NCBI GenBank assembly: GCA_048938895.1 | Contig: JBHLLU010000078.1 | Coordinates: 1-15,036, forward strand | Length of the DNA stretch: 15,036 nt | Reading direction: 5' to 3' | Source of the DNA: Promethearchaeota archaeon | Lineage (GTDB): Archaea > Asgardarchaeota > Lokiarchaeia > Sigyniarchaeales > SOKP01 | Translations under genes and position numbers: made by a program | Notes under the pieces: generated by a model | The model's database searches: none | Told to the model about the DNA's origin: nothing | Seen by the model: the letters and a program-made list of their open reading frames with translations, nothing else | Part shown: positions 1-15,036 of the stretch, piece after piece | How positions within the stretch are numbered: the first letter of the stretch is position 1 | Layout of the letters: each line of letters starts with the position of its first letter

Positions 1-560
1 CCAGCAGCTATAAATAAGGATACACCACTACCAAGCCCCCATCCTTTTTGGAGTAATTCGTCAAGAAGAATGATAACTATTCCCGCAAAAAGGAGTTGAG
101 CAAAGATAAAAAATCCGCCCTGAATCCCGATATCATCTACCTTACCAAAAGCACCTCCAAATAGATAAGCAATAGAGTTAAAAATTGTTAACATTACTGC
201 AAGAACTTTTTGAGCTCCACTAAATAAAGCCCTATCATATGGATCAGCCATATTCACATTAATAATTCGCGAACCTAGGAGAAGTTGCATTATAAGTCCT
301 GCGGTTACAATGGGACCAATTCCAAGTTCAGTGAGTGTTCCTCTTTGGCTTGCAAGAATCACCCGCAACCAATAAAAATAATCTGTTGAATCTTGAATTT
401 CAATCCCATAGAGTGGGATATTAGACATAATTAAATATACAATTAGGACGACAGCAGTCCAGATAAATTTTTCTTTAAATGAAACCTCGCGTTGAGGATT
501 TTTGATTTCTGGCATAGCTCTTACGAAAGGTGAAAAGAATTTAAGGAACTTACCGGCCAT
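1..560 (-). CDS. secY: Preprotein translocase SecY/Sec61alpha, 5' part (runs off the window start; not in ORF track)
   Basis: Manual translation from ATG at 560: [53 protein letters not shown]...[32 protein letters not shown]...[10 protein letters not shown]...[22 protein letters not shown]. These are hallmark SecY/Sec61alpha motifs, and the frame is open to the window edge. Confidence 0.97.
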   Translation of the reverse strand, partial: [186 protein letters not shown]

Positions 561-744
561 GTCTGATCAACAACGTGAGTGTTTTTGAACTAACTATTAG
601 ATTTTGTAAAATATTATTTTCAGTATCAAAAAATCAAACTGTAACTTAAAAAAAAATAGAATTTTAAAAAAAGTTTTTGATTTAAAAAGCAATTCATATA
701 GATATTTCTAAACAATAATCAGCAAATTAGATTTGGTAAAGATA

Positions 745-776
745 CTATTGAAATTAAAAAAATAAATAAAAAAAAT
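745..776 (-). terminator. Putative oligo-U archaeal terminator downstream of rpl12
   Basis: A-runs on the + strand (U-tracts in the mRNA) start a few nt after the rpl12 stop. A 222-nt AT-rich spacer separates rpl12 from secY. Confidence 0.4.
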
Positions 777-782
777 ATGGTT

Positions 783-1073
783 TTAGAAGAGAGACCCGAT
801 ACCCGTAGGTTCTTCCTCGATTTCCTCTTCTTCTTCTTTCTTTTCTTCTTTCTTTGCTTCTGTTTTTTCACCAGCTGGAACCGCCATCACTGGCATTGAG
901 CCAGCAGACTTAATGATATCTTCAATTTTGGTTTCTTTTAAACCAGCAATAAGTTTTGCAATCTCATCTTTATCTGCTTTAGCACCAGCAGCAGTTAAAA
1001 CTTTCTCTACATTTGCTTGGCTAATTTTTCCACCAGCTTTATGAAGCAACAGTGCAGCATAGATACTTTCCAT
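783..1073 (-). CDS. rpl12: 50S ribosomal stalk protein P1/L12 (archaeal)
   Basis: Starts MESIYAALLLHKAG, has an Ala-rich hinge and an acidic tail ending GIGSLF. SD-like GAGGT upstream. Last gene of the L11-L1-L10-L12 order. Confidence 0.97.
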   Translation of the reverse strand: MESIYAALLLHKAGGKISQANVEKVLTAAGAKADKDEIAKLIAGLKETKIEDIIKSAGSMPVMAVPAGEKTEAKKEEKKEEEEEIEEEPTGIGSLF

Positions 1074-1149
1074 TACATTTAACCTCTTTTATGTTTTTTT
1101 AATATTATATTTGAAATTTCTATTGAAATTTAAAAAAATTCTTAATTAT

Positions 1150-2040
1150 TTATCCAAATAACCCTCCAATACCAACTTCTTCTTCCTCTTCCTCTTCTTC
1201 ATCTTCTTTTTCTTCCACTTTAGTTTCAGGCTCAGTGGGTATTGGTATACCCTTTCCAAAGATCACAGTTTCTATAGTATTGGCTTCCGATACTGCCTTG
1301 CGAATGTAATCTTCAGTCATAGTTTCTTCAATGAAGGGCATTTCAAAGAGTATTGCCAGAGCTTCTCTATAACCTTTTACTACATCTTGTTTGAATTTAT
1401 TCATATCCATGTATAATACATCTTCAGGTATTATTTCTCCATCGCTCCATGCAAAATGAATTTTAATCAATGATTCTATAGGTGCTATACCAAGTTTTTT
1501 TAATACAGCAGCTTGTTTTACTGTCACTAAATCACCTGTTTTATGAGTTCTGGTATCTTCACGTACATGGATGGTATCATTCATAATTCTTGTGGGTAGT
1601 TTTAATGTCATATTAAGTTCGCTAATTACTTGACCCGTGGGCAAACCTGTATCTCCTGCAGGTACCCAAATATCTACAGGCGTGATTTCATTTGGTTTTG
1701 CAGGAACCATCCATTCATAATCATGGAAAATCTTTTTCAGTTCTATTAAATCAAGATTCGTGAATACCAGACTTGATTGACCGGGAATACTGGTTGCTAA
1801 TTCATCTAAGTTTGACTTTTTAGACTCTTTTTTAAATTGCTCTATCGCTCGGATTTGTAGAGATTTTTTCGACATGCGAAATACTGCTTTTCCTCTTAAA
1901 ATTTTACGCATCGTTTGGAATTGTAAATCTTGTAGATGGGCAACTTCTATAACAGCGACATTTTTATAGGTGTTAAATAATTCGACAAGATTATTTACTT
2001 CTTTAACCTTCCAATCTGGTATATGTTGTTGTTTAATCAA
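1150..2040 (-). CDS. rpl10: 50S ribosomal protein uL10/P0
   Basis: IPDWKVKEV, the archaeal/eukaryotic insertion domain (PAKP..DIWVPAGDTGLPTG) and an acidic tail ending GIGGLFG. TTG start preceded by GAGGTG. Confidence 0.96.
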   Translation of the reverse strand: MIKQQHIPDWKVKEVNNLVELFNTYKNVAVIEVAHLQDLQFQTMRKILRGKAVFRMSKKSLQIRAIEQFKKESKKSNLDELATSIPGQSSLVFTNLDLIELKKIFHDYEWMVPAKPNEITPVDIWVPAGDTGLPTGQVISELNMTLKLPTRIMNDTIHVREDTRTHKTGDLVTVKQAAVLKKLGIAPIESLIKIHFAWSDGEIIPEDVLYMDMNKFKQDVVKGYREALAILFEMPFIEETMTEDYIRKAVSEANTIETVIFGKGIPIPTEPETKVEEKEDEEEEEEEEVGIGGLFG

Positions 2041-2044
2041 ATTC

Positions 2045-2773
2045 TTACACCTCTACTTCCTTTAAAAATTGTTCGCTTACTTTAACTGGTTTTCCCATTG
2101 TCGATTTTAAATGCATTGATTTGAAGTTATTGAATCTATGAGGCATTTGATCTCCTACAAAATTTACAACTGTCTTCATGTTTTCAAATAATTTATCGAA
2201 TTCCATGGATTTCTTACCTATTTTTGTAAAAATGATAGGTTGTTTCTTCATTTGGACCCGAACCACCTTTTTATATCTATCAAAAGCAACCTTTAAATCA
2301 TCGAGACTGGAGATAATACCATATCCCGTAGGAAATGGTTTAGGCATTTTACCTAATGGTCCAAGAAATCGAGCTAAATATCGAGCGACATCACGCATCA
2401 TCTTATCTTCCACTACAAAGAAATCATAGTTTTTTGCAAACTTCTTTTTATACTTCTTTTCTTCATTATTAAGTTTAATTAATCCCTCTGAATCAAGAGT
2501 ATCAAGACCCATTTTTCTTGCTTCAAGTAAAATCTCATCGGAGGCAATTACACAAATATTTGGTTTATCTGTGGTAATAACATCATTAGAAAGGATGATT
2601 TCTTTATCAATCCTATTTTTTGGATCATTTAAGTTTACATCTTTGATATTAATAATAAGATCAATGGATTCATCAAACTTTCGCACTTTATCTTTAAATC
2701 CTTCTTTCTTAATTATTGAATACTCTAATGCTGCATCCAAGGATTTCCTTAATAACTTATCATCAACCTTCAA
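2045..2773 (-). CDS. rpl1: 50S ribosomal protein uL1
   Basis: RKFDESIDL, LGPLGKMPKP and KSTMGKPVKV motifs. TTG start preceded by GAGGTGA. Confidence 0.96.
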   Translation of the reverse strand: MKVDDKLLRKSLDAALEYSIIKKEGFKDKVRKFDESIDLIINIKDVNLNDPKNRIDKEIILSNDVITTDKPNICVIASDEILLEARKMGLDTLDSEGLIKLNNEEKKYKKKFAKNYDFFVVEDKMMRDVARYLARFLGPLGKMPKPFPTGYGIISSLDDLKVAFDRYKKVVRVQMKKQPIIFTKIGKKSMEFDKLFENMKTVVNFVGDQMPHRFNNFKSMHLKSTMGKPVKVSEQFLKEVEV

Positions 2774-2775
2774 TC

Positions 2776-3308
2776 TTAAATTTCACCTCGGATTTTATCG
2801 TCAAAATCTCCATTTTCTATTCTTTTTTGTAGTTCTCTTGGATCTAATCCCTCAACAGTTATTCCAACTGATAATGCTGTTCCAAGTACTGACTTTACCG
2901 CATATTTAAAATTTTTATCAAGAAATTTATCTCTCTTTGCCTCAACCACATTAATAATTTGATCAAGGGTTAAATTACCAACTTTGTCTTCTGCACATGA
3001 GGAACTTCCTTTCTCAACACCCACTTCTTTTAGTAATAATGATGCGGTAGACGGGGTTTCTATAAAAATTTCAAATTGTTTGGTTTCTGGATCACACTCT
3101 ATTCTGACAGGTACAGTCAATCCTTTGAAGATCATTGTCTTTTCATTGATTTCATCAACTACATCTTTGATATTTATGCCCGTGGGACCTACTGCTGGAC
3201 CTTTACCCAATTCAACAGAAGCGAAATACTTCATATAATAGGCGGTCCACCTGATGCACTTCCACCAGTAACAAGGGCATTCACAGTCACTTTTCCTTTA
3301 GTGCTCAC
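2776..3308 (-). CDS. rpl11: 50S ribosomal protein uL11, interrupted. Predicted spliced CDS = join(3308..3238, 3202..2776), 165 aa
   Basis: GTG at 3308 (in-frame TGA at 3317-3315 just upstream) gives MSTKGKVTVNALVTGGSASGGPP(I). A different frame continues GPAVGPTGINIKDVV...VPVRI...TPSTASLLLKE...SVLGTALSVG. The ORF-track start at 3234 lies inside the insert and adds 11 non-L11 residues (MKYFASVELGK). Confidence 0.95.
3203..3237 (-). other. Putative 35-nt bulge-helix-bulge (BHB) pre-mRNA intron in rpl11
   Basis: mRNA reads UGGACC GCCU AU^U AUAUGAAGUAUUUCGCUUCUGUUGAAUU GGGU AA^A GGUCCA. This gives an exon-exon helix UGGACC/GGUCCA, a 3-nt bulge AAA, a 4-bp helix GCCU/GGGU and a 3-nt bulge AUU. 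Cutting after the 2nd nt of each bulge joins CCU AUA GGU (Pro-Ile-Gly) in frame. Confidence 0.8.
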
Positions 3309-3342
3309 AAATTTTCACTTTTATCCAAATTAATTTCATCTA

Positions 3343-3455
3343 ATAATCTTCCTAAAAGTAGAGAACGCGTAATTAAAGTTGTAGTTCCTCATTTCAATAT
3401 CTTTATTATATCGAAACCGCTTTAACTTGCGTCCTAAGTCTTTTAGAAATATTAT
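3343..3455 (-). promoter_or_regulatory. Structured putative 5' leader RNA of the rpl11 operon
   Basis: Nested helices on the minus strand: AUAAU/AUUAU, UUUCUAAAAG/CUUUUAGGAA, AGGACGC/GCGUUCU, AGUUAAAG/CUUUAAUU, GUUUCGAUAU/AUAUUGAAAU. Several G-U pairs would be A-C mismatches on the + strand. Confidence 0.6.
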
Positions 3456-3485
3456 AGACTTAGTGAGTATGTAAATAAACTAAAA

Positions 3486-3497
3486 TTAAAAAGTTTT
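3486..3497 (-). promoter_or_regulatory. Candidate BRE/TATA promoter for the rpl11 operon
   Basis: Minus strand reads AAAACTTTTTAA, about 30 nt upstream of the leader hairpin. The AT-rich context makes this weak. Confidence 0.3.
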
Positions 3498-3514
3498 ATT
3501 AAAAAAAGGAAAAA

Positions 3515-3703
3515 TTAAAATCTGCAGCAGAGTCTTCTCCCAAAATCAAAATTATAAGTTAAGTATTCCTCTGTCAAGAAGTCAATGATAGTATCATAAT
3601 CGGCTTTTACCTTTTTTACAATATCCTCAATTTCAATTCCAGGAGTAGCAATTAAAGTAAGAATTTCCTGTTTCATTTCTTCAGTTAGTTCTGTTTCCAT
3701 CAT
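3515..3703 (-). CDS. Small hypothetical protein (62 aa), acidic and helical (possible HTH-like), ending RRLCCRF
   Basis: ORF fills the gap between cheB and the rpl11 leader, is co-oriented with both and has plausible composition. No family recognised. Confidence 0.65.
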   Translation of the reverse strand: MMETELTEEMKQEILTLIATPGIEIEDIVKKVKADYDTIIDFLTEEYLTYNFDFGRRLCCRF

Positions 3704-3731
3704 TTACTAGAATTGATTATAACTAAAAAAT

Positions 3732-4862
3732 TTAACTTACAAATTTAATCATTTCATCAACAATATTATAATTTGGTAAAATTAAATCAGCAGCACCAGT
3801 TTCAGCAGCAACTTTTGGCATTCCATATAGTATGCTCGTTTCTTTAGATTCGGCTACTGTTTTTCCTCCTTCCGCTTTTATTGCTTGAAGACCATTAACA
3901 CCATCTCTTCCCATACCCGTTAATAATATTCCCAGAGTCTTACTTTTATAAACTCTTGCAGTAGAATAAAATAATACATCCACAGAAGGTCTACAAAAAT
4001 TTACGGGCTCTCCCTCAAAAGTTCTTATGCAGGGTATATTGTTCTTAATAGTAACTTGCATATGTTTATCTCCTGGGGAGAAGTAAATTATACCAGGTTG
4101 AATGTCCTCATAGTTTAAGCCAATTTTTACTTTTAATTTGCAAATACTACGTAATGAAGTGACGAATTGTCTCATAAATAGATGATTTAAATGTTGGACA
4201 ACTAAAATAGGGGCAGGAAATCCATTTGGAATTTCACTAAAGATTGTTCTTAAAGTTCTAGGTCCTCCAACGCTTGCACCTATTACGATAATTTTGGTCT
4301 CAAGTTTTGTAAGTGTAACTGGTGATAATTCAAAAAAATATTCCTCTGATCTTGATTTATTTAAAGATTTAATTTTCTTATTTGAATTTTCTGCTAATTT
4401 CCTACTTTGTTCTAATAAAAAATTAGTGTTAAATTGCCTTGCTTTACTACCTAATTTCTGCTTTTTAGTTCTCTCATTAGATAATATTTTTGAAAGGATG
4501 ATCTCCTTAATTTTAGGAAGTTCATCCTTCCAAATCCCCTCAGGCTTAACAACATACTCATTTGATTCTATTAAATTTTGTAATTTTGGAGAATTCAAAT
4601 CATTAGGAGTTTTATCAAGTAAGATTATAGTTTTTGTTGATAAATTATTGATTACAGGATAAAATTGACTAAACCAGTCAACATTCTCAATTTCAATATC
4701 TAAAATTAAAATATCTAAATTTTCATTTCCGATATGTTCAATTGCTTCTTTTGCATTCCTTACAAAGCCAACTATTTGTAGATCCTTATGAGACCCGAGC
4801 ATTTCAGAAAGCATGTTCCTTCGAAATGCTGATTCAGAAGCAATTAATACTTTTTTTTCCAT
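3732..4862 (-). CDS. cheB: CheB-type protein-glutamate methylesterase (degenerate REC domain plus methylesterase domain)
   Basis: Catalytic motifs GASVGGP (Ser), VVQHL (His) and LTGMGRDG (Asp), plus RPSVDVLF and YGMPK. N-terminal receiver-like domain with ILDIE and VVKP. Confidence 0.93.
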   Translation of the reverse strand: MEKKVLIASESAFRRNMLSEMLGSHKDLQIVGFVRNAKEAIEHIGNENLDILILDIEIENVDWFSQFYPVINNLSTKTIILLDKTPNDLNSPKLQNLIESNEYVVKPEGIWKDELPKIKEIILSKILSNERTKKQKLGSKARQFNTNFLLEQSRKLAENSNKKIKSLNKSRSEEYFFELSPVTLTKLETKIIVIGASVGGPRTLRTIFSEIPNGFPAPILVVQHLNHLFMRQFVTSLRSICKLKVKIGLNYEDIQPGIIYFSPGDKHMQVTIKNNIPCIRTFEGEPVNFCRPSVDVLFYSTARVYKSKTLGILLTGMGRDGVNGLQAIKAEGGKTVAESKETSILYGMPKVAAETGAADLILPNYNIVDEMIKFVS

Positions 4863-4969
4863 TTTTGAGATTGCTTTTTTCCTACTGTAAATAAGAAAAT
4901 GCTAATTTAAATATATGAGTAAAAATTAAGGTTTGTTCTTTGATTATGTAAATAAACCTTCTTTAGGCT

Positions 4970-5644
4970 CTATTCTTCCAAAATAACTTCATGTGTAATG
5001 GTACCAATAATTTCGATGGAAGCTTTGATAACATCACCTGGCTGAATTGGACCAACTCCACTTGGTGTGCCAGTAGCAACAATATCTCCTTTTTCAAGCG
5101 TTAAAAAACTTGAAATATATTCTAATATCTTCGGAATTTTAAAAATCATATAACTCGTGTTAGAGGTCTGTGTTGTTTCTCCATTTAGTATTAACTCTAT
5201 ATTTAAATTATGAGGATCTTCAATCTCTTTTAAAGGAACTATACGTGGACCGATAGCTGAAAATGTATCAAAGTTTTTACTACGATACCATGGCAAATTT
5301 TTATTCCGGTCAAAAATCTGCATGTTTCTTGCGGTAATGTCAAGAAAAACTGAGTATCCTTGAACATAATCAAAAGCCACTTCAGAGGAGATTTTTTTAC
5401 ATCGCTTTGACAAGATAAAGGCTAATTCTACTTCATGATCGACTCTATTGAAATCCTCACTTTCAAAAAGAATTCTAGGATAAATAATAGGCTTATCGTC
5501 TGTAATGATAGAATTAATTGTCTTAACAAAAAACACAGGTTCAGTGGGCACTGGAGCATTAAATTCTTTGGCGTGCTCTCTGTAGTTTCTACCTAAGCAG
5601 ACTATTTTTGTTGTTTCTATTTCATTAGAGCCAATTCTTATCAT
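4970..5644 (-). CDS. Fumarylacetoacetate hydrolase family protein (copy 2)
   Basis: KIVCLGRNYREH, VDHEVELA, DITARN, RSKNFDTF and GDIVATGTPSGVG motifs. ATGA overlap with the upstream paralog. Confidence 0.93.
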   Translation of the reverse strand: MIRIGSNEIETTKIVCLGRNYREHAKEFNAPVPTEPVFFVKTINSIITDDKPIIYPRILFESEDFNRVDHEVELAFILSKRCKKISSEVAFDYVQGYSVFLDITARNMQIFDRNKNLPWYRSKNFDTFSAIGPRIVPLKEIEDPHNLNIELILNGETTQTSNTSYMIFKIPKILEYISSFLTLEKGDIVATGTPSGVGPIQPGDVIKASIEIIGTITHEVILEE

Positions 5645-6327
5645 ACATTATCCTCCCCTTCTAAAATTACTAGATTTGTAAGGCTACCAATCTTTTCTAT
5701 TGTTGCTTCAATTTTATCACCAGGAACAACAGGCCCTATCCCTGCAGGTGTTCCTGTGGCAACTATATCACCAGGTTCCATTGTAAAAAGTTGAGTTATA
5801 TACTCAAAAATTTCAGGAATCTTAAATAATAGATGTTTTGTATTAGAGGATTGCTTAACTTCACCATTTACTTTTAATTCTATATCAAGGTTGTGAGGAT
5901 CTTCGATTTCATCTGTTTTTCTAATGACAGGCCCTATTGGTCCGAATGTATCAAAGGATTTTGATCGAAACCATGGTTTCTGAGACACAATATCCTTTGT
6001 TTGCATTTTACGGGCAGTTACATCATTAAAAACTGTATATCCTAAGATATATTCATAAGCCTTATCAGGAGAAACATTCTTGCATTTATCTTTAACAATA
6101 AAAGCTAATTCTACTTCATAATCAACCCGATTATATTTCCTATTGTTATAAAGGTATTTAGGATAGATAATTGGTTGATTGTGAGGAATTAAGCAATTTA
6201 ATGTTTTTGGAAAGAGGAGCGGTTCTTTGGGAACTTCTAATCCCGTTTCTTCAATGTGATCCAGGTAGTTAGTACCTAGGCAAATAATTTTAGTTGGATT
6301 TATAGTAGTATCTCCAATTTTGATCAT
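5641..6327 (-). CDS. Fumarylacetoacetate hydrolase family protein (copy 1)
   Basis: KIICLGTNYLDH, VDYEVELA, NDVTAR, RSKSFDTF and GDIVATGTPAGIG motifs. SD-like GAGGT upstream. Confidence 0.93.
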   Translation of the reverse strand: MIKIGDTTINPTKIICLGTNYLDHIEETGLEVPKEPLLFPKTLNCLIPHNQPIIYPKYLYNNRKYNRVDYEVELAFIVKDKCKNVSPDKAYEYILGYTVFNDVTARKMQTKDIVSQKPWFRSKSFDTFGPIGPVIRKTDEIEDPHNLDIELKVNGEVKQSSNTKHLLFKIPEIFEYITQLFTMEPGDIVATGTPAGIGPVVPGDKIEATIEKIGSLTNLVILEGEDNV

Positions 6328-6395
6328 AGGAAGTACCTCAAACTAATATTGTAAGAATAATCGATAAATTAAATAAATTTATATTACTTATAGAT

Positions 6396-6995
6396 TTGAT
6401 GGAAAACAATAAGCTCACTAAAGCTTCATATTCTAAAGAAGAGCGAAATGTCATAGATCAGATTAGTGAAATCTATAATTTCATTAAGATAAAAAAATTC
6501 TGCAAATTCATCCCAGAAGTACGAACTAATATTGCTGGTGCGCTAAAAAATGCCAAAAAAAAAGGAGATGTTGCTGGAATTGATGGTAGAATTACAATAG
6601 TTAATGGTCTCCCGAAAGCTGCAGGAGATATCAAATTTGGGGTAGCTGAACATACAGCAAGATTGGTCCTCACAGCAAAAGAATTTGATACTTCTATTAA
6701 TTTTGTTATTAATCTGAAATACACACCTGAATTGATAAAAAGTATTCGAAAAAACACTGATTTACAGTTAGAAGAAATCGATCGAGAAAAGCAACCTAAA
6801 GAGATTAAAAATGAAGAATTTTCTACGATGCAATGGTTAATAAAAGAGAGTGTTGATAAGATTGGGAGGATTCCCGATATTATTTGGGATAAAGGTTCTA
6901 TTGGTAAAGAACCAATGATACGGTTATTTGGTAAGGATGCTACTGATTTAATTGAAAAATTAAGGAAAATTATTAATATTAATGTAGATGATTAA
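6396..6995 (+). CDS. thiN: ThiN-family thiamine-phosphate synthase (stand-alone domain)
   Basis: IPEVRTNI, DVAGIDGRI, FG..EHTAR, STMQW and PDIIWDKGSIGKEPMIRLFG motifs. Adjacent to thiW. Confidence 0.85.
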   Translation: MMENNKLTKASYSKEERNVIDQISEIYNFIKIKKFCKFIPEVRTNIAGALKNAKKKGDVAGIDGRITIVNGLPKAAGDIKFGVAEHTARLVLTAKEFDTSINFVINLKYTPELIKSIRKNTDLQLEEIDREKQPKEIKNEEFSTMQWLIKESVDKIGRIPDIIWDKGSIGKEPMIRLFGKDATDLIEKLRKIININVDD

Positions 6996-7052
6996 GATTT
7001 TAATTAGCAATTTTAAACATTACATCACCATTTTTTTTGAGCTGATATAAAA

Positions 7053-7613
7053 TTGAGTGAAACTCCCTCTCAAACAGCGGAAATATCAAGAAAGCAATTA
7101 ATTCTAAATAAAAAAATTGCAGCAGCTGGTATTTTTATAGCTGTGGGCGTTTTTTTAAGTGCTATAAATCCTTTTGGTTATTTTACCATATTTGGTACAA
7201 AAATCAATCCGTTTGCCCATCTTATTAATGCTATAACTGGTGTTTTAATAGGATTAATCTTCTCTTGCATCACTGCTCTTGGAATAGCAATGCTGCGATT
7301 TGCGACAAATATTGGTACAATCCATGCTTTCCATGGAGGCATTTCTGGAGCTGTGGTGGTAGGTTTAATAGCTTATTTACTCCGTAGAAAGTATCCTAGA
7401 TATGTAGAATTTGCCGCACTATTTGAACCATTAGGTACTATATTTATAGGAGGTACCATCGGTTATTTGATTACAGGAGATATTTTTGTGATTGAGAGTC
7501 TATTTACATTTTGGGTGCTGTTTGCATTAAGTTGTATCCCCGGCTCTATACTGGGCTTTATAATTTTGATGGCATTAAAACCCGCGAAAATATCATGGGA
7601 AGATTTTTTTTAA
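7053..7613 (+). CDS. thiW: ECF-type thiazole/thiamine-precursor transporter S component ThiW
   Basis: Multi-TM protein with NPFAHLINAITGVLIG, LRF..NIGTIHAFHGGISGA and EPLGTIFIGG, matching the ThiW pattern. Follows thiN. Confidence 0.85.
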   Translation: MSETPSQTAEISRKQLILNKKIAAAGIFIAVGVFLSAINPFGYFTIFGTKINPFAHLINAITGVLIGLIFSCITALGIAMLRFATNIGTIHAFHGGISGAVVVGLIAYLLRRKYPRYVEFAALFEPLGTIFIGGTIGYLITGDIFVIESLFTFWVLFALSCIPGSILGFIILMALKPAKISWEDFF

Positions 7614-7637
7614 ATTACATAATTTTCTGTTATATAT

Positions 7638-8225
7638 ATGAATCCTAATTTAAATTTAGAATTTGAGAATCAGATTGGTCATCATACTCTACTATATGGG
7701 GATACTAATACTAATAAGACTTTGCAAACATCTGAATTTGTTAAATTTCTTTTGGAATTAAAAAAAGTACCCCCTATGGAAATCAGCATATTAGATTTTG
7801 CCCCACCCATAATGACTATAAATAATTTAAAAGTCGGAGGAAAAATACTAGATTTTTATGAAAAGGCCAATGATTGCAAAAATATTATGTTTAAAGGAGA
7901 AATAATCCCTCCTCGCTTAAAATCAGACAATAAGAAAGAACTATACGAGAATGCATCTAAAAACTTTCAAAAAACATCGGAGATCCTTAACATATTTAAC
8001 CAAGATCCAACACCCATATTAATAATCAATGATATTTCAATCCATCTTCACATTGGAAGAATTAAATCATTATTAAACGCAATTAGTAAATCTGACACGT
8101 TTTTCGGCAATACTTATTATGGTTCTTCTATTAAACGAGGTTATGCAACTTTCTTCAGTTTGCGAGAACGAAGAAGAGTAAAATCGTTGATTAAAAAAGT
8201 AGAACTGTCTTATTTTATGGGTTAA
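7638..8225 (+). CDS. Uncharacterised P-loop NTPase-fold protein with a deviant Walker A
   Basis: TLLYGDTNTNKT (GxxxxGKT-like with G to N), ISILDFAP, IPPRL and a Walker-B-like ILIINDIS. Confidence 0.6.
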   Translation: MNPNLNLEFENQIGHHTLLYGDTNTNKTLQTSEFVKFLLELKKVPPMEISILDFAPPIMTINNLKVGGKILDFYEKANDCKNIMFKGEIIPPRLKSDNKKELYENASKNFQKTSEILNIFNQDPTPILIINDISIHLHIGRIKSLLNAISKSDTFFGNTYYGSSIKRGYATFFSLRERRRVKSLIKKVELSYFMG

Positions 8226-8291
8226 ATTTTTTTATAAAAATATGATCTTATATCATATAAGATTGTCAATGCTAGTGATATTGACTTAAAA

Positions 8292-9260
8292 ATGGCGAAA
8301 AAGAATATCATTCTAATTTTCATATTAATTATATCAGGCTTGAGTGTGGATATATATCTTCCTACTGTTTTCCTTTCCTCTGGACTGCAATCATATGATA
8401 TTATTGAAGAATCAGAAATTTGGTATTTTCCAGAAGATCTTTCTCCTCAGGTAGATTTAAGTATCATTACTGATGTGGGCAATATCAAAATAGAATATGT
8501 TGAACCCTCATTTAGTACTTATGGAAAGATTAATGTTATTTTTAACATAGCAGGTTCAGATTTAGCTGGAAAATCCTATACAGATTACTTTTCCCTCAAT
8601 TACCAAACTACTAATTCTAGAGCTAATTTCACTTTAGAGGTTCTTTCAGATGACTGGTTTGATACTTCCTTATGGTCACTGCGGAATATCAGTATCATTA
8701 TCTCTCTTAGATCAGATGTCATATTCAATATAAATGCTACCCTTGAATATGGAGATTTTGATTTGGTTGTTCCCTATGGTGTTTCGATTGGAAATATCCA
8801 TATAAAGATATCCTCAGGAAATATTCTCTATAATTTTAACCACTGTATAATTGATGGAAATATAACAGGGATAACAAATAAAGGTGATTTAAACTTACAA
8901 TCGTATAATGTGGAATATACTCAAAACCACAATTGGATGCTTAACAGTACAGATGGAGATATGACCATTGCAATCTCTCAATATAAAGAGATGGGTGCAA
9001 ACATAACCGGTACTGCTATGATAATAAATAGTGATTTAGATCTTTTTTATAATGACACTTCTTCCGATATTGGCGCTATATTTTATTTCCCTTGCGTATC
9101 CCAGGATCCAGCAATTGGTGGGGGCGGATTTGCTGGAGCTAGCAAAGGTGTAGGTGTTATATATACTTCTCTTGATTTTCCTACCAAAAATAATTATAAT
9201 TTGACATTCTATCTCCCAGATATTTCTCAAGATCACAATTTATACATTCACAGTGATTAG
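8292..9260 (+). CDS. Membrane-anchored or secreted beta-strand-rich hypothetical protein
   Basis: N-terminal MAKK plus a hydrophobic stretch. Recurrent G-D/N-hydrophobic strand motifs (TDVGNI, EYGDF, SSGNI, NKGDL, TDGDM). Many N-x-S/T sequons. Confidence 0.7.
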   Translation: MAKKNIILIFILIISGLSVDIYLPTVFLSSGLQSYDIIEESEIWYFPEDLSPQVDLSIITDVGNIKIEYVEPSFSTYGKINVIFNIAGSDLAGKSYTDYFSLNYQTTNSRANFTLEVLSDDWFDTSLWSLRNISIIISLRSDVIFNINATLEYGDFDLVVPYGVSIGNIHIKISSGNILYNFNHCIIDGNITGITNKGDLNLQSYNVEYTQNHNWMLNSTDGDMTIAISQYKEMGANITGTAMIINSDLDLFYNDTSSDIGAIFYFPCVSQDPAIGGGGFAGASKGVGVIYTSLDFPTKNNYNLTFYLPDISQDHNLYIHSD

Positions 9261-9311
9261 AAATTAGCTTGTTTATATTAAATTTACACTGAGTTATAAT
9301 TTGATTCCGCC

Positions 9312-10982
9312 TTAAACGAAAGATACGTTTTTAAATGAATCTTTTATTGGGTGAGGATGCCAACCTATTAATTTTGATATATAAATATCTATGCGTGTCC
9401 TAGAATTAAGCCAAACATGGGGAAAAACCACTTCAATGAGGCATTTTTGAATATCATAATATAGTTGTCTTCTAGCATTGGGATCTGTTTCAATTACAGC
9501 TTCTTCCATCCATTCTTGTACTTGTGTATCATTCACTTGTCCCATGTTATACCCAATCTTTTTATTTGTGTAGAATTCATTAATAAAGTTGCTGGGATCG
9601 TTATAATCCGCAAGCCAAAAATTATAATCAAGCTCAACCTCATCTCTATGATCACCATCAATGTCTTCGGATCTTCTCAACCATTCTGCAAAAGATATAA
9701 TAGTAGGCAGTACTTTTACTCCAATTTGTCTAAGGTCTTCAACAATTCGATCTGAATACCATATACTTCTTAGCCATTGATAACAAGCAGAATAAGTATA
9801 AGTTGCGAGAGGAGTTGGACTATCTGCTACCAGTTCCCATTCATTACCAGCACTGATATTATTGTTTACAGTCAATAACTCAGTTCCAGGCCAATTTCCA
9901 TCTTTTAAGGTTTGTCTTGCAATAGTAATATTATAATATGGCACATTAATGCCTGATATATTATAATATAAAATACCTTCTGGAATTGGACTTTTAGCTC
10001 TTACAAAAGTATGGTGATATTGATAGCTAGAATAATTAAAAGCATAAGAAATTGCTTTTCTCATGGTAATGTTAATTAATTTGTTATTCATCACGATAAA
10101 ATCTACCCATGGAACGGGTATTCCATCTGTTACCTTAAATGAAGGATTATTTCTGAAGGAATCTAGGATTGATTCATTAAACCCCGCAGACTTCTTTATG
10201 TGAATTTCACCCGATAATAGTGCATCTTCTACCAATTCGTCTGAAATTTGAAGAAAAATTAGTTTATCGACTTTTGGTTTGCCACCCCAGTAATATTGAT
10301 TGGCAGATAAGGTTAAGTTACCAAAATGATCAAAAATAAAAGGTCCTGTCCCCACAAGGGCTTTTGGAGGGACAATAAAATCATCTGCTGGTGTAGAAGT
10401 TGGGGATACTATATATGAATAAGTCGATGCAAGTAAACTCAAGAGAGGTGAATAGGGCGAGTTTAATATGAATTTAACAGTATATTGATCTATAACTTGA
10501 GTTTCATTAATGATAGACCTATTATCAGGGAGTTTCCATAGAAAAGAGAAATAGACATTGTCAATAAGTCTATATGCTCTGTCGATGTTCCATTTAACAG
10601 CAGTCGCATTAAATGGTGTTCCATCGTGGAATTTGACTCCCTGTCTAAGTGTACATGTAAGGTTTAAGTCATCAGTACTCCACTCATGATGAGTTGCAAG
10701 GCAATTAATTATTTCTGAATTCTCATCTATATCAAATAAACCTTCAGCAACCTGATTAATGACATCTGCGTCTACCGGATCCGAAACATCAATTGGATCA
10801 ATAGTGTAAGGAAGACCATAGCCACAAAAGTATAAAATCTTAGGTTGTGTAGTTTTAATATTTATTCCTACTATAATGCCTGCTACTGCAAAGGCAGCGA
10901 TTATACCACTAATCATTAAAGGTTTCTTTATACCTTCAATTTTTTTAACTTTCTTCTTTGTGGGGGCTCTTTCTGTTGTCAT
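9312..10982 (-). CDS. ABC transporter substrate-binding protein, family 5 (peptide/nickel)
   Basis: N-terminal TM anchor, then LRQGVKFHDGTPFNATAVKWN, GTGPF, MRKAISYAFN and WLADYNDPSNF motifs. Confidence 0.92.
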   Translation of the reverse strand: MTTERAPTKKKVKKIEGIKKPLMISGIIAAFAVAGIIVGINIKTTQPKILYFCGYGLPYTIDPIDVSDPVDADVINQVAEGLFDIDENSEIINCLATHHEWSTDDLNLTCTLRQGVKFHDGTPFNATAVKWNIDRAYRLIDNVYFSFLWKLPDNRSIINETQVIDQYTVKFILNSPYSPLLSLLASTYSYIVSPTSTPADDFIVPPKALVGTGPFIFDHFGNLTLSANQYYWGGKPKVDKLIFLQISDELVEDALLSGEIHIKKSAGFNESILDSFRNNPSFKVTDGIPVPWVDFIVMNNKLINITMRKAISYAFNYSSYQYHHTFVRAKSPIPEGILYYNISGINVPYYNITIARQTLKDGNWPGTELLTVNNNISAGNEWELVADSPTPLATYTYSACYQWLRSIWYSDRIVEDLRQIGVKVLPTIISFAEWLRRSEDIDGDHRDEVELDYNFWLADYNDPSNFINEFYTNKKIGYNMGQVNDTQVQEWMEEAVIETDPNARRQLYYDIQKCLIEVVFPHVWLNSRTRIDIYISKLIGWHPHPIKDSFKNVSFV

Positions 10983-11198
10983 TTTATCCTCAACTTAACG
11001 AATTTCTCAATTTAACCTAGTTAATTTACAATTTAATGAGATTTCGCATTTTATGTATTAAAATAATAAAATAATGTTATTCTTATTAAATCTTTCTACA
11101 ATTATACTCAAAGACAGCAGATCCTTTATGACAAAAGAATTTTAACCAATGGCCAATTTAATTATCTACATATTATAAATAAAATGGTGTGTTAAAAA

Positions 11199-11858
11199 AT
11201 GAAGAAGCTAGTGTTATTTGGTCCACCTGGAGCGGGGAAGGGTACATTTTCAGGGCAAATAAAAAAACTATTACCGGAAATAGCTCATATAAGCACGGGA
11301 GATATCTTTAGGGAAAATCTTAAAAATGAAACACCCTTAGGATTAAAAGCTAAATCTTATATGGATAAGGGAGAATTAGTTCCTGATGATGTCACTATTG
11401 ATATGGTTCGGGATAGGCTAAGTAGGGAAGACGTAAAAAAATATGGTTTTATCCTTGATGGATTCCCACGAAACATGACTCAAGCAAAAGCATTAAGTGA
11501 AATGACTCAGGTTGACTTTCTCCTCTTATTAGAAGTTAGTCGAGATATAATTGCAAAACGGATATTAGGCAGATTTGGCTGTAGCAGTTGCAATGAAATT
11601 TATAATAAATATACTTTACCACCAAAAGAAAAAATAGAAGAGAACAAATGGATCTGTGATAAATGTGGTGCTGAAATAGAATTCAAACAAAGAAGCGATG
11701 ATACAGAAGAAACTTTGAAGAATCGATTAGACACGTATGAGAAAAATGCAAAACCTATTATTAAATATTACAAAAAAATGGGAAAATTGAAAAAAGTTGA
11801 TGCTACAGATACATTGAGTTATACTGAAGATGATATAAAGAAAATTATAAGAATTTAA
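11199..11858 (+). CDS. adk: Adenylate kinase, bacterial/eukaryotic-type with a Zn-binding LID
   Basis: GPPGAGKGT, HISTGDIFR, GELVPD, GFILDGFPR, LID cysteines CSSC...CDKC and QRSDDTEE. Confidence 0.95.
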   Translation: MKKLVLFGPPGAGKGTFSGQIKKLLPEIAHISTGDIFRENLKNETPLGLKAKSYMDKGELVPDDVTIDMVRDRLSREDVKKYGFILDGFPRNMTQAKALSEMTQVDFLLLLEVSRDIIAKRILGRFGCSSCNEIYNKYTLPPKEKIEENKWICDKCGAEIEFKQRSDDTEETLKNRLDTYEKNAKPIIKYYKKMGKLKKVDATDTLSYTEDDIKKIIRI

Positions 11859-11885
11859 TTTTTTTTACTAATTTATTATTATATT

Positions 11886-12638
11886 ATGAAATTTAATATC
11901 TGTGTGCCGATACCTATTAAATCTGCGAATATTATTGAATTAAAATCATTAATAGAAAAATCACTAAGGTCTTATCCTAACCTAATTGAATTTAGATATG
12001 ACTATATCGACAATGTTAAGCATATTACTCAAGATTTAACAAATGAGTTGTTATCTGATGTTCAAGCTGAAATCCCTGTTATTTTTACGTTTAGAACTCA
12101 TCATGAAGGTGGACAAATGCAAATTGATGAAAAAATGCGTTTAAAAACAATAAGAACGCTAATTTTATCGAAGCCTAATTATTTAGATATAGAAATGAAT
12201 ACAGAGAAAAGAATGTTAAATGAAATTATTAATTTAGCAAATCAAAATAACGTACACTTGATTTTCTCATATCATGATTTTGATAAAACACCATCATATG
12301 AGACGGTATCCAATCAAATCCATAATTTTTTAGATAAATTAGGAGAAGAATATGGATTTGGATCTCAAAATATTGAAAATATCATAATAAAAATGATTTT
12401 TACCGCTCAGAAATTTGAAGATAATATTGTGCCATTAAAATTATGTAAGGAAATCTCAAAACAAAATACTAGAATTATTTCCTTTTGTATGGGAGATCTA
12501 GGAATATTATCAAGAATTTTGTGTGTTTTAAATGGCTCTTTCTTAACTTATGGCTCATTCGTAGGAGAAACAGCACCAGGACAAATCAATATCAAAAAAT
12601 TAAGGGATATGATTGATGTTCTTCGAGAAGATGAGTAA
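11886..12638 (+). CDS. aroD: Type I 3-dehydroquinate dehydratase
   Basis: IEFRYD, IFTFRT..EGG, SYHDF (catalytic His), IIKM (Schiff-base Lys), FCMG..G..SR and TAPGQ. Confidence 0.93.
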   Translation: MKFNICVPIPIKSANIIELKSLIEKSLRSYPNLIEFRYDYIDNVKHITQDLTNELLSDVQAEIPVIFTFRTHHEGGQMQIDEKMRLKTIRTLILSKPNYLDIEMNTEKRMLNEIINLANQNNVHLIFSYHDFDKTPSYETVSNQIHNFLDKLGEEYGFGSQNIENIIIKMIFTAQKFEDNIVPLKLCKEISKQNTRIISFCMGDLGILSRILCVLNGSFLTYGSFVGETAPGQINIKKLRDMIDVLREDE

Positions 12639-12695
12639 ATAGTGTTTTAATGGTAATAAAATTTAAAAAAATAAGGGAAGAAAATAATTGAAATA

Positions 12696-12869
12696 TTAGT
12701 TTTTCTTAAATAAGTTCCCACAGTCTCCACATTTCATATTAGTAGAATAGACCGGAGTACCCTGCATACTGTAATATAGTACATTATTCCGATCAGCTTC
12801 TTCATGGAGTTTCCGTGGATTCTCATTGCCACATTGAGGACATTTAACTCTTTTCCAATTTTCAGTCAT
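12696..12869 (-). CDS. Small C4 zinc-ribbon protein (57 aa; missed by ORF track)
   Basis: Manual translation: MTENWKRVKCPQCGNENPRKLHEEADRNNVLYYSMQGTPVYSTNMKCGDCGNLFKKN*. Two CxxCG knuckles. TTATATAA TATA-like box at 12903-12910. Confidence 0.85.
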   Translation of the reverse strand: MTENWKRVKCPQCGNENPRKLHEEADRNNVLYYSMQGTPVYSTNMKCGDCGNLFKKN

Positions 12870-12934
12870 TTTAAAATAACCCTAACCCTTTAGTAAAATG
12901 AGTTATATAATTAGTAGGGTTCATAAATTTAAAT

Positions 12935-13465
12935 TTAGGTTTTTATTCCGGTTTTTATAACTACTTCCTCAACAATCTCTTCCACTTCCTTCCCAGTTGT
13001 TTCAATTATGTATTCTGCGGCTGCTTTATAATACGGTCTTCGAAATTTTAGTACCTTTTCTATTTCTTTTTTTGGATCCTCCTTATCTATTACAGGTCTT
13101 GTTTCTTTCCCATCTTTAATAGCTCTTTTAAAAATTTCCTCGATAGACGCTTCCAATAAAACTATATGGCAGTTTTTTTTTAAATTATCAATATTTATTT
13201 TATTTAAAACGACACCTCCACCACAAGATACTACTATTTTGGAAAGATTCGAAACTTCTTCACAGGCTCTAATTTCATATTCTCTAAATTTGTCTTCACC
13301 ATCTTCAGAAAAAATCTCTGGAATTGTTTTACCTGCCATTTTAATTATTATCTGATCAGTTTCAATGAATTTATATGTACTTCCTAAATACTCTGTTAAT
13401 GATTCTCCTACGGTGGTTTTTCCAGTAGCCATGAAACCGATGAGCGCAATGCTATTTTTATTCAT
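12935..13465 (-). CDS. aroK: Shikimate kinase, NMP-kinase (bacterial AroK) type
   Basis: IALIGFMATGKTTVG, EIF..DGE.KFR..E, SCGGGVV, TRPVI and RRPYY. Lies near aroD and aroE. Confidence 0.93.
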   Translation of the reverse strand: MNKNSIALIGFMATGKTTVGESLTEYLGSTYKFIETDQIIIKMAGKTIPEIFSEDGEDKFREYEIRACEEVSNLSKIVVSCGGGVVLNKINIDNLKKNCHIVLLEASIEEIFKRAIKDGKETRPVIDKEDPKKEIEKVLKFRRPYYKAAAEYIIETTGKEVEEIVEEVVIKTGIKT

Positions 13466-13507
13466 TTTTATTCTTAATTTAACTTTGAATTACTTTCAAT
13501 CTGTACA

Positions 13508-14068
13508 TCACTGTAGAGAAAATCCATGCCTTCCTATAGCCCCTTTTTTTAAAGCAATATAATTCCCCGAGATATAGGCGAAAGTGTTTATTTTATCTGG
13601 ATCTAAATTGTTATTCTTCACATAATTACTATCAGAATGTACAGCTACTACTTCACCAAAATAACAGACGTGAGAACCTAATTCTGTCCTCTGAATTACT
13701 TTACATTCCATATTCCATGGGAATTCTTTTACTAAGGGTACTTCAATTATTGATGCTTTTTCCTTTGTTAGGTTCAACTCTTTCCATTTGTTTACATTTC
13801 TCCCTGATCTTGTTCCACAATAATCCATATCTCTCAACTGGTCAATGGTGGGATAATTTATCCCAAATTCCCCATGTTTCTCAATTAATTTATAAGAATG
13901 GCGTCTGGGTTGCATAGATATCGCAATAAGCGGAGGTTGCATACAAACCTTTCCTACGTATGCAAGTGTAATTAAATTTGCTTCATCTCCAGTTCCCACT
14001 GATATAACAGCAGCGGGCATTGGAAAGGTAGTCATTCCTGTACTCAATTTAACTTTTTCCATCTCCAA
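13508..14068 (-). CDS. Flavin reductase-like / flavoredoxin-family FMN-binding protein
   Basis: FPMPAAVIS, PPLIAIS, RHSY..I...GEFGIN, DYCGTRSGR, MECKV and LGSH..YFGEVV. TTG start with GAGGT upstream. Confidence 0.9.
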   Translation of the reverse strand: MEMEKVKLSTGMTTFPMPAAVISVGTGDEANLITLAYVGKVCMQPPLIAISMQPRRHSYKLIEKHGEFGINYPTIDQLRDMDYCGTRSGRNVNKWKELNLTKEKASIIEVPLVKEFPWNMECKVIQRTELGSHVCYFGEVVAVHSDSNYVKNNNLDPDKINTFAYISGNYIALKKGAIGRHGFSLQ

Positions 14069-14154
14069 TATTTACCTCTTTTTAGCTAAATAATTATATA
14101 TTACAATTTTTCTTTAACATATTATTAATAAAATTTAAAACTTCTGCTTACATC

Positions 14155-15024
14155 ATGCTGTCTGGAAAAGCTATTACCTCACGCACTAATCTTTTGGGCG
14201 TTATGGGACATCCCATTGAACATAGTATGTCTCCTATAATGTGGAATCCTGCCCTACAAGAGTTAGGACTTGATTACATTTATGTAGCTTTTGATGTTCA
14301 ACCCGAAAATCTTGAAAAAGCCATCAATGGGATAAGAACATTAGGAATCAAAGGAGTAAATGTCACACACCCCCACAAAAGCACAATAATTAAACATCTT
14401 GATGAGGTTGATGCTTTCGCATTGAAGTTAGGGGCAATTAATACTATTAAAAATGAAGATGGAGTTTTAAAAGCAAGAAACACAGACGCAGGTGGGGCAA
14501 AGAAATCTCTACTGGATAAAGGATGCAAAATCGAGGGAAAAATTATACTCATTTTAGGTTCTGGGGGTGTTTCAAGAGCTATAGCTTATGTCTTAGCAGA
14601 AGAAGCTAAAAAAATAGTTGTGACTGATGTAATTGAAGAAAGGGCGTTAATTGTTGCTAGGGAAATCAAAAATAATATGAATATGGATATTGAAGGAGTT
14701 ATAAATAGTAATAAAAATCTTGAGGCATCTATAAAGAAAACAGATATTCTTATCAATGCAACTCCCATTGGGATGTATCCCAAAGTTGATGAATCCCCAA
14801 TACCGAAAAAATTAATTCGAGAAAACCTTTTCGTATTCGATGTTATTTATAATCCTCTTAAAACAAGATTAATTAAGGAAGCTGCAGAGATTGGATGTGA
14901 AACATTAGGCGGATTAGATATGCTCATTAACCAAGGAATATTAGCATTTGAATGGTGGTTAAATAAAACACCTAATAAAGAGCTGATGAAGGATAAAATT
15001 ATCGAATATCTTGGGTTAACATAA
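14155..15024 (+). CDS. aroE: Shikimate dehydrogenase
   Basis: GHPIEHSMSP, GVNVTHPHK, GAINT, NTDAGG, GSGGVSRA, NATPIGM, DVIYNP and GLDMLINQG. Confidence 0.95.
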   Translation: MLSGKAITSRTNLLGVMGHPIEHSMSPIMWNPALQELGLDYIYVAFDVQPENLEKAINGIRTLGIKGVNVTHPHKSTIIKHLDEVDAFALKLGAINTIKNEDGVLKARNTDAGGAKKSLLDKGCKIEGKIILILGSGGVSRAIAYVLAEEAKKIVVTDVIEERALIVAREIKNNMNMDIEGVINSNKNLEASIKKTDILINATPIGMYPKVDESPIPKKLIRENLFVFDVIYNPLKTRLIKEAAEIGCETLGGLDMLINQGILAFEWWLNKTPNKELMKDKIIEYLGLT

Positions 15025-15036
15025 TGAAAAGCGAAA

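Follow-up and report, generated by a model that had tools for sequence, protein, structure and literature searches.

Archaeal EndA cuts RNA after the second base of each bulge in bulge-helix-bulge (BHB) motifs, and the cbf5 pre-mRNA intron of Crenarchaeota was reportedly described by Watanabe in 2002. According to the accessible text of PMC7714728, the mRNA BHB introns reported by 2020 comprised only cbf5 in Crenarchaeota and one in the 5' untranslated region (5' UTR) of Haloferax HVO_1309. Here we describe a 15,036-nt stretch of DNA from a Promethearchaeota archaeon (assembly GCA_048938895.1, contig JBHLLU010000078.1, positions 1 to 15,036; "the window" below), in which rpl11, the essential gene for ribosomal protein uL11, is interrupted by a 35-nt insert that is very probably a BHB intron acting at the RNA level, with EndA making the cuts and RtcB the join.

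A small mRNA intron is also removed in HAC1/XBP1, where IRE1 cuts at stem-loops and a tRNA ligase (RtcB in animals) joins the ends with a change of frame. The likeness lies in the removal of a small mRNA intron by a protein endonuclease and a tRNA ligase, with a frame change; the difference is that IRE1 recognises stem-loops and not a BHB, and that the reaction is a regulated stress switch. The cbf5 introns, as far as the accessible parts of the source go, are likewise short BHB introns inside protein-coding sequence, often relaxed in form, carried by hosts with a hetero-oligomeric EndA and present or absent among related species (PMC2738675, Yokobori 2009). Unlike cbf5, the inserts described here lie in core ribosomal-protein and AIR-synthase-family (AIRS-family) genes of an Asgard lineage, occupy four sites in about 55 nt with up to three introns per gene, have a hairpin motif common to the sites and show a presence almost uncorrelated with the gene tree; and whereas cbf5 splicing was shown experimentally, the introns here are predicted from DNA sequence. 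The HVO_1309 intron of Haloferax volcanii is similar in that the splicing endonuclease there acts on an mRNA and not on tRNA or rRNA, but according to the accessible text it is untranslated and breaks no frame, whereas here excision would be needed for the protein (PMC7714728). The tRNA introns of Asgard archaea share the lineage, the presumed enzymes and, in the accessible text of a preprint, repeated gains at BHB-capable sites (bioRxiv 10.64898/2026.10.13.758758), but they sit in tRNA genes, whereas the hosts here are protein-coding; in the same text the word "mRNA" occurs 0 times and the route of intron arrival is left open.

The mechanism would be of a known kind, an EndA-type intron in pre-mRNA. 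What appears new is that such introns occur in these host genes and in this lineage, that four sites cluster in one gene, that close relatives carry them in an almost random pattern and that a hairpin is shared. The initial annotation of the window had not known such a case to be described, and full-text literature (mainly non-subscription, supplements aside) likewise yielded no description of a ribosomal-protein gene with a BHB intron, nor of such introns in the protein genes of Asgard archaea.

The interrupted rpl11 gene

The reading frame of rpl11, on the minus strand, is broken by 35 nt at 3237-3203. Translation from GTG 3308 gives VSTKGKVTVNALVTGGSASGGPPII and ends at the TGA at 3233-3231, and a second piece of 141 residues, GPAVGPTGINIK..., runs in a different frame from 3201 to the stop at 2778-2776. 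Excision of 3237-3203 joins AU to A as an Ile codon and gives a protein of 23 + 1 + 141 = 165 residues. The first residue of exon 2 corresponds to position 17 of the 58-position Ribosomal_L11_N profile of Pfam (the match covers 17-58), so that the break falls inside the domain. The parts of the gene are as follows.

3238..3308, minus strand: rpl11 exon 1, with a GTG start, 23 codons and the AU of the split Ile codon (from translation)
3203..3237, minus strand: candidate 35-nt BHB-type mini-intron at site A, with the stop TGA (3233-3231) in the exon-1 frame
2776..3202, minus strand: rpl11 exon 2, in which A3202 completes the split Ile codon, followed by 141 codons and the stop; Pfam Ribosomal_L11_N and Ribosomal_L11

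On the RNA strand the junctions are framed by the following predicted elements.

3244..3249, minus strand: 5' strand UGGACC of the outer (exon) helix, pairing with 3196-3201
3240..3243, minus strand: 5' strand GCCU of the central 4-bp helix, in exon 1, pairing with GGGU 3205-3208
3237..3239, minus strand: 5' bulge AUU, predicted cut 3238/3237, opposite six unpaired bases (3214-3209)
3215..3236, minus strand: intron hairpin AUA(U)GAAGU / GCUUCUGU, with pentaloop AUUUC (3227-3223) and closing pair U3228-G3222
3205..3208, minus strand: 3' strand GGGU of the central helix, in the intron, forming two G-U pairs
3202..3204, minus strand: 3' bulge AAA, predicted cut 3203/3202
3196..3201, minus strand: 3' strand GGUCCA of the outer (exon) helix, pairing with 3244-3249

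Thus two 3-nt bulges, a 4-bp helix and flanking helices are all present, in a relaxed form and with an outer helix of 6 bp. The minimum free energy (MFE) fold of 3259-3186 recovers both the outer and the central helix, together with the AAA bulge. Directly after AUU an inner helix, AUA(U)GAAG / CUUCUGU, pairs 3236-3229 with 3221-3215 and leaves U3233 bulged, and in the relatives that carry an insert at the same site this inner hairpin has 100 % of its cells paired and two compensatory pairs. Three of the four central pairs are kept in 8/8 homologous inserts at this site. In one public DNA run (X2) a strain variant has A in place of G3208 when read on the RNA strand, so that U-G becomes U-A. 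The initial annotation had placed at this locus a uL11 gene split by 35 nt with an in-frame TGA and a 165-residue product, and had proposed the helices UGGACC/GGUCCA and GCCU/GGGU, the bulges AUU and AAA and a GAAG/CUUC hairpin, in a probable Asgard archaeon. The split, the product and every one of these elements are found in the sequence, and the relatives belong to Promethearchaeota, a phylum of the kingdom Promethearchaeati, which makes the organism an Asgard archaeon. Its caveat that the motif is relaxed stands with regard to the two G-U pairs and to the 5' side, which is indeed relaxed, but not with regard to a weak intron-side helix, which is stronger than had been stated and shows compensatory changes.

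The window is one contig (C165) of a genome bin (G000) of 4.65 Mb in 174 contigs, 98.7 % complete with 7.5 % contamination, and a PF00298 search of the whole bin found rpl11 in single copy, with no second gene that might supply an intact protein. Four of the twelve public DNA runs with the locus were compared against 2700-3420. A contig of run X2 crosses the insert with 0 differences (3178-3312) and is accompanied by a variant with 6 substitutions; one of run X4 crosses it with 1 difference (3085-3418) and one of run X5, from a different study, with 12 substitutions (3157-3420), whilst run X7 had no contig over 2700-3420. In X2, X4 and X5, which represent two studies, the contigs are gap-free over the insert, with no indel and no joint, so the DNA does span it, as the initial annotation had asked to be confirmed. 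The loose ends that three runs show at 3237 come from the intron-free rpl11 of a related organism.

Inserts in related genomes and the prediction of their junctions

Searching 41 related genomes with the C-terminal piece revealed one group in which the match begins only at residue 9-11, and the 5' ends of that group proved to hold short inserts, each confined to one of three precise positions (sites A, B and C). A fourth, site D, was first seen in a larger collection of genome contigs. The sites are listed here with their position in the peptide and the length of the insert.

Site A (the site in the window): PPI/GPA, 35-36 nt in the first loci and 30-36 nt over 14 other loci
Site B: inside GGS/ASGG, 36-37 nt
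Site C: GPTGI/NIK, 28 nt
Site D: GPAV/GPTG, 28-30 nt

The genus comprises 54 genomes, 52 of them with a match; 50 loci span the 5' region and three are cut by contig ends. Inserts are present at 25 of these 50 loci (9 at B, 9 at A and 14 at C), with all three sites occupied in two genomes and B plus A in three, and at 0/6 loci from other families of the same order; the closest relative, with a 92 % identical protein, has none. The contig collection yielded 80 loci, mostly titled Promethearchaeota archaeon, of which 38 were duplicates and 42 new, and 21 of the new loci bear inserts. The total is 60 inserts of 28-38 nt at 46 loci (A 15, B 17, C 23, D 5), once 21 calls that the aligner had made spuriously were taken out, all of them from nine loci that are distant or truncated (L026, L027, L028, L029, L031, L133, L153, L160, L174). 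The four sites span about 55 nt inside the first approximately 100 nt of rpl11, and as many as three introns per gene may fall within approximately 80 nt of coding sequence (L017, L056, L161). Homologous inserts thus share the exact site and preserve the proposed pairs in 93 % of cells, as the initial annotation would have it for a genuine intron. When 32 inserts were compared with the bin by blastn-short, only the insert itself and otherwise chance-level matches were returned, indicating that the insert is not a multi-copy repeat there.

Examples of the sites can be seen in L017 (1333-1522) and, for site D, in L136, L140, L142, L143 and L148. One record in the collection, L132 (DATKTW010000004.1), is titled "Candidatus Nanopelagicaceae bacterium" and encodes an archaeal uL11 75 % identical to that of the window; the contig is probably mis-binned or mislabelled. 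Record titles within the one GTDB genus carry the phylum names Thor-, Hod-, Hermod- and Odinarchaeota.

An important consideration is whether the geometry of the BHB predicts the junction that the protein requires. Excision by the BHB rule restores GGSASGGPPIGP[A/T]VGPTGINIKDVVDE in 13/13 of the first loci, including one with three inserts. A first junction test proved too coarse, since the aligner places gaps arbitrarily. In the register test the excision was slid over 17 offsets, with peptide validity and best BHB geometry scored independently, and the register of best geometry was peptide-valid for 46/60 inserts compared with 16.9 expected; four further inserts are correct at the best-geometry offset and were missed by the peptide pattern, which brings the figure to 50/60. 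At site A, where each insert has 2-3 valid offsets, agreement was 15/15, and the assertion of the initial annotation that structure-based cuts and protein homology coincide holds for every insert at this site. The canonical motif (hBHBh') occurs at site D (5/5) and in L051 at site A, with outer, central and inner helices of 5-7, 4 and 3-9 bp, respectively. At sites B and C only the 5' side is strict, and in most site-A inserts, including that of the window, only the 3' side. Pair counts, made on hand-written structures, were as follows.

Site A: 93.1 % of cells paired, three compensatory pairs
Site C: 91.7 % of cells paired, one compensatory pair
Site B: 93.8 % of cells paired, no compensatory pair

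In slid-partner controls 24-59 % of cells were paired across sites A, B and C. The conservation of structure with compensatory changes in homologous introns lends the BHB interpretation modest support, the sequences being related. The one free inner pair of the outer helix, formed by two Gly third positions, is present in 9/9 insert-bearing and 19/41 insert-free alleles; this enrichment with the insert is suggestive, and the alleles are kin. Beyond the BHB itself, all four sites have inserts with a hairpin whose A-N-N-U-C loop is closed by a C-G or U-G pair; it occurs in 39/60 inserts by MFE folding and in 32/60 by a fixed rule (A 11/15, B 8/17, C 10/23, D 3/5), compared with 230/200,000 random genomic windows (0.115 %); the copy in the window lies at 3229-3221 with its loop at 3227-3223.

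The interrupted genes have the marks of genes in use. Read-through is possible in 0/60 inserts, a stop lying inside the insert in 45 and within 60 nt after it in 14, with 1 merely out of frame; 44/60 are not a multiple of three, and an in-frame restart codon is found within 12/60 (ATG in 6). Over codons 1-38 the 44 alleles with an insert differ pairwise by 0.097/0.064/0.529 at codon positions 1/2/3, and the 40 without one by 0.105/0.074/0.561. Exon 1 is under the same purifying selection with or without the insert, in frame with the rest of the gene, which requires that the insert go before or during decoding.

The bin encodes the enzymes that such removal would call upon. Two open reading frames (ORFs) of 202 and 200 residues, 30 % identical and located on contigs C83 and C123, have EndA domains (PF01974/TIGR00324 above cut-off), and there is one RtcB (PF01139, 566 bits). 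Paralogue 1 retains the catalytic His, and its match in two-repeat EndA models is to the catalytic half; paralogue 2 is without the His, aligns to the structural half and has a weak beta-subunit match (24 bits against a cut-off of 157). The EndA types of broad specificity, which relaxed motifs would call for, are (alpha-beta)2 with the L1 loop and epsilon2. The pair would fit the (alpha-beta)2 EndA of Asgard archaea, which in the accessible text of PMC5829648 has a loop that gives broad specificity. ARAGORN found only 24 tRNA genes in the bin, 13 with introns, despite its 98.7 % completeness. This low count fits the pattern of the lineage, whose tRNA genes are, in the accessible text of bioRxiv 10.64898/2026.10.13.758758, heavily interrupted and missed by callers, and many tRNA genes are probably too interrupted for calling. 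The A-N-N-U-C hairpin is generally absent from the ARAGORN-called tRNA introns, a similar one being present in a tRNA-Ala intron.

The proposed sequence of events is that the Gly-Pro codons on either side of the insert would pair in the pre-mRNA as the exon helix, whilst the last bases of exon 1 and the 3' end of the intron would form the 4-bp helix, leaving a 3-nt bulge on each strand. The two-subunit EndA would then cut after the second base of each bulge and RtcB would ligate the exons, to give the Ile codon AU/A and a uL11 of 165 residues. The insert would be one member of a set of related 28-38-nt introns at four rpl11 sites, among which some route of spread is presumed.

A second candidate mRNA intron is present in the same bin at 4435-4464 of contig C101 (736-765 of locus L064). 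It is a 30-nt canonical BHB with outer, central and inner helices of 11, 4 and 6 bp, and divides an AIRS-family (PurM-like) gene at about profile position 42, the downstream piece of which starts from position 43 of the 112-position AIRS profile; open frames of this family in the genus are bimodal, at about 305 or about 468 residues. An insert of the C101 type is present at 8/30 same-genus loci and absent from 22, including the closest relative. In the C101 intron 98.8 % of cells are paired, with two compensatory pairs, and there is no A-N-N-U-C hairpin. In helix-strength ranking it is a clear outlier, with a score of 26 against 18 for the next, and 11 other candidates score at least 16. Carriers of the C101-type insert (L073, L074, L079, L087, L092-L094) share flanking exon codons about 35 nt upstream, Ser AGT and Leu TTG, whereas insert-free alleles (L066-L072 and others) have Ser TCN and Ile ATA, and overall identity is ordered differently. 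The shared flanks could reflect either co-conversion with the intron or a separate allele lineage.

Weighing the proposed intron against other explanations

A number of observations weigh against the interpretation of these inserts as EndA-type introns. Splicing is a prediction from DNA, the search of public runs having returned 12 DNA runs and 0 RNA runs with the locus. The single-sequence fold of the rpl11 insert has z = -1.77, with 11/200 shuffles folding equally well. The motif is a relaxed one in that AUU forms one side of an internal loop of 3x6, and the central helix has two G-U pairs, the fourth pair (U3240-G3208) occurring in only 2/8 homologous inserts. The outer helix follows in part from the Gly-Pro codons, which are self-complementary anyway. 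The geometry score favoured another register in 10/60 inserts (six at B and four at C), because the run-length score preferred a competing register. Covariation is thin, with zero compensatory pairs at site B, and that of the C101 intron is not significant (45-56/500 shuffles), there being too little variation. Finally, scans of the bin gave no bulk excess of such introns. A strict hBHBh' scan returned 10,473 structural hits, among which frame-fusing cases numbered 110 as against 92-113 for wrong-cut controls, and in two half-strict scans the numbers were 1967 (controls 1841-2004) and 726 (controls 744-796). The power of the scans was low because the upstream-openness filter on the exon-2 frame discarded the rpl11 intron itself, so either mRNA introns are rare in the bin or the scans were underpowered. 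The initial annotation had called for a scan for other split genes; it produced one clear further BHB case, that of C101, and no general excess. Thus mRNA BHB introns appear not to be confined to rpl11, and to be rare in the bin as far as low-power scans tell. V-type ATPase A was considered as a further split gene and rejected, since its truncated look arose at the edge of a locus and an intact frame of 613 residues is present.

It is unlikely that the inserts are removed by some activity other than EndA and RtcB, with the BHB geometry incidental or partial, at least at sites A, B and C. Such a view can draw on the near absence of an outer helix at sites B and C (0-2 bp), on the almost complete lack of an inner helix directly beside the central helix in most site-A inserts, and on the A-N-N-U-C hairpin, which lies outside the BHB rule and, at 32/60 against 0.115 %, hints at another recognition element. 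However, the cuts set by the BHB rule fall on the peptide-restoring junction far more often than chance would have it, the introns of site D, L051 and C101 are canonical motifs, and Rfam gave no family match at E <= 1 in window positions 2600-3600. In the accessible text of PMC2738675 relaxed motifs are the norm for cbf5 introns and are cut by hetero-oligomeric EndA. Another activity is less economical than EndA because of the canonical members and this relaxed precedent in cbf5. Group I and group II introns have conserved catalytic RNA domains and run to hundreds of bases; they were rejected as candidates for inserts of 28-38 nt with no Rfam match in the positions searched.

Translational bypass, in which the ribosome hops over a stretch of message, is known from phage T4 gene 60 and from mitochondrial "byp" elements, and the lengths of the inserts are comparable to known bypass gaps. 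In the window the stop TGA (3233-3231) lies just past the break and a hairpin follows it. But take-off and landing triplets are mismatched at site A, where AUU or AUA stands against AAA, and likewise at B and in several site-C alleles. Nor does hopping yield a junction within a codon, such as is seen here in phase 1 at C and in phase 2 at the three other sites; moreover the junction is predictable from BHB geometry, and bypass is accordingly given very little credence. An intein or in-frame insertion was rejected, with 0/60 inserts readable through and 44/60 not multiples of three. There remains the view that the gene is broken or made piecewise, being a pseudogene, a frameshift, an error of assembly or binning, or a uL11 restarted at ATG 3234. 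That ATG does open a frame of 152 residues covering most of the protein, and the assembly is a metagenome bin with an estimated 7.5 % contamination. Nevertheless rpl11 is single-copy, independent contigs contain the insert, inserts lie at exact codon positions in 46 loci from many assemblies, and exon 1 is under purifying selection equal to that of intact genes; an in-frame restart codon is available in only 12/60 inserts (ATG in 6), and exon 2 alone would lack the first 16 positions of Ribosomal_L11_N. This view is highly improbable and has been largely refuted.

Turnover and kinship of the probable introns

If the inserts are BHB introns, as is preferred here, their distribution bears on how such introns come and go. 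A maximum-likelihood tree was built from 84 spliced coding sequences of what is a short gene, by a quick method. It excluded six loci from other families (L026-L031), six that were truncated or poorly aligned (L132, L133, L143, L153, L160, L174), two with frames that were too short (L062, L170) and the contig-end fragments L060, L061 and L063. Mapping of the sites on the tree gave the following changes.

Site A: 15 carriers, 13 changes, shuffled mean 13.8, 66/200 shuffles at or below the observed value
Site B: 17 carriers, 13 changes, shuffled mean 15.7, 13/200 shuffles at or below the observed value
Site C: 22 carriers, 19 changes, shuffled mean 19.5, 91/200 shuffles at or below the observed value
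Site D: 4 carriers, 2 changes, shuffled mean 3.9, 2/200 shuffles at or below the observed value

The mapping indicates that the presence of an intron is nearly uncoupled from divergence of the gene, and well-supported sister pairs have unlike introns, for example L001 (A) and L035 (none), L006 (none) and L020 (C), and L019 (C) and L038 (B + A). Gain, loss or exchange of inserts appears to outpace the divergence of the gene sequence, and the data fit either fast gain and loss or exchange of the 5' segment between species. Sites A and D have a common exon context, GGACC-GNCU-NU^A-GGUCC, because the Gly-Pro motif is repeated. The sharing of hairpin and context is read as either common descent or a shared functional constraint. 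One idea, that of autoregulation, is that the A-N-N-U-C hairpin mimics the uL11 site on 23S rRNA. Searches with the archaeal LSU rRNA model RF02540 found no 23S rRNA in the bin or in one single-contig chromosome of the genus (G023), and no more than a 25.5-bit fragment in another (G006); a cmscan of the surrounding 6.8 kb gave no match; the 23S genes of the genus may be unassembled or heavily interrupted. A broader proposal, which is put forward tentatively and at somewhat less than even odds, is that a mobile family of BHB mini-introns invades and leaves Asgard protein genes between look-alike sites, may cross species by recombination, and has in the hairpin a functional handle, for example for spread or for feedback by uL11. 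If that were true, protein-enzyme mRNA splicing with intron gain and loss would be ongoing in the closest archaeal kin of eukaryotes.

Should the inserts be spliced, up to three introns would have to be removed from the gene for a core ribosomal protein, in the lineage of archaea that is closest to eukaryotes, and a metabolic gene of the same genome would need one. The presence or absence of introns at exact sites over about 90 genomes amounts to a natural experiment on intron arrival and departure. There are practical consequences too, in that gene callers annotate split genes as truncated or frameshifted, and marker-gene pipelines based on uL11 will meet short or broken proteins in these genomes.

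Downstream of rpl11 and on the same strand lie the following genes, named from their translations.

2773-2045, minus strand: uL1
2040-1150, minus strand: P0/uL10
1073-783, minus strand: P1
560-3, minus strand: SecY, start of the gene

No split was found in uL1, P0 or P1, either in the window or in those loci of relatives that have these genes. Elsewhere in the window, at 4970-6327 on the minus strand, are two tandem paralogous ORFs of 224 and 228 residues with a 4-base overlap, which, judged from their translations alone, have the look of the fumarylacetoacetate-hydrolase family.

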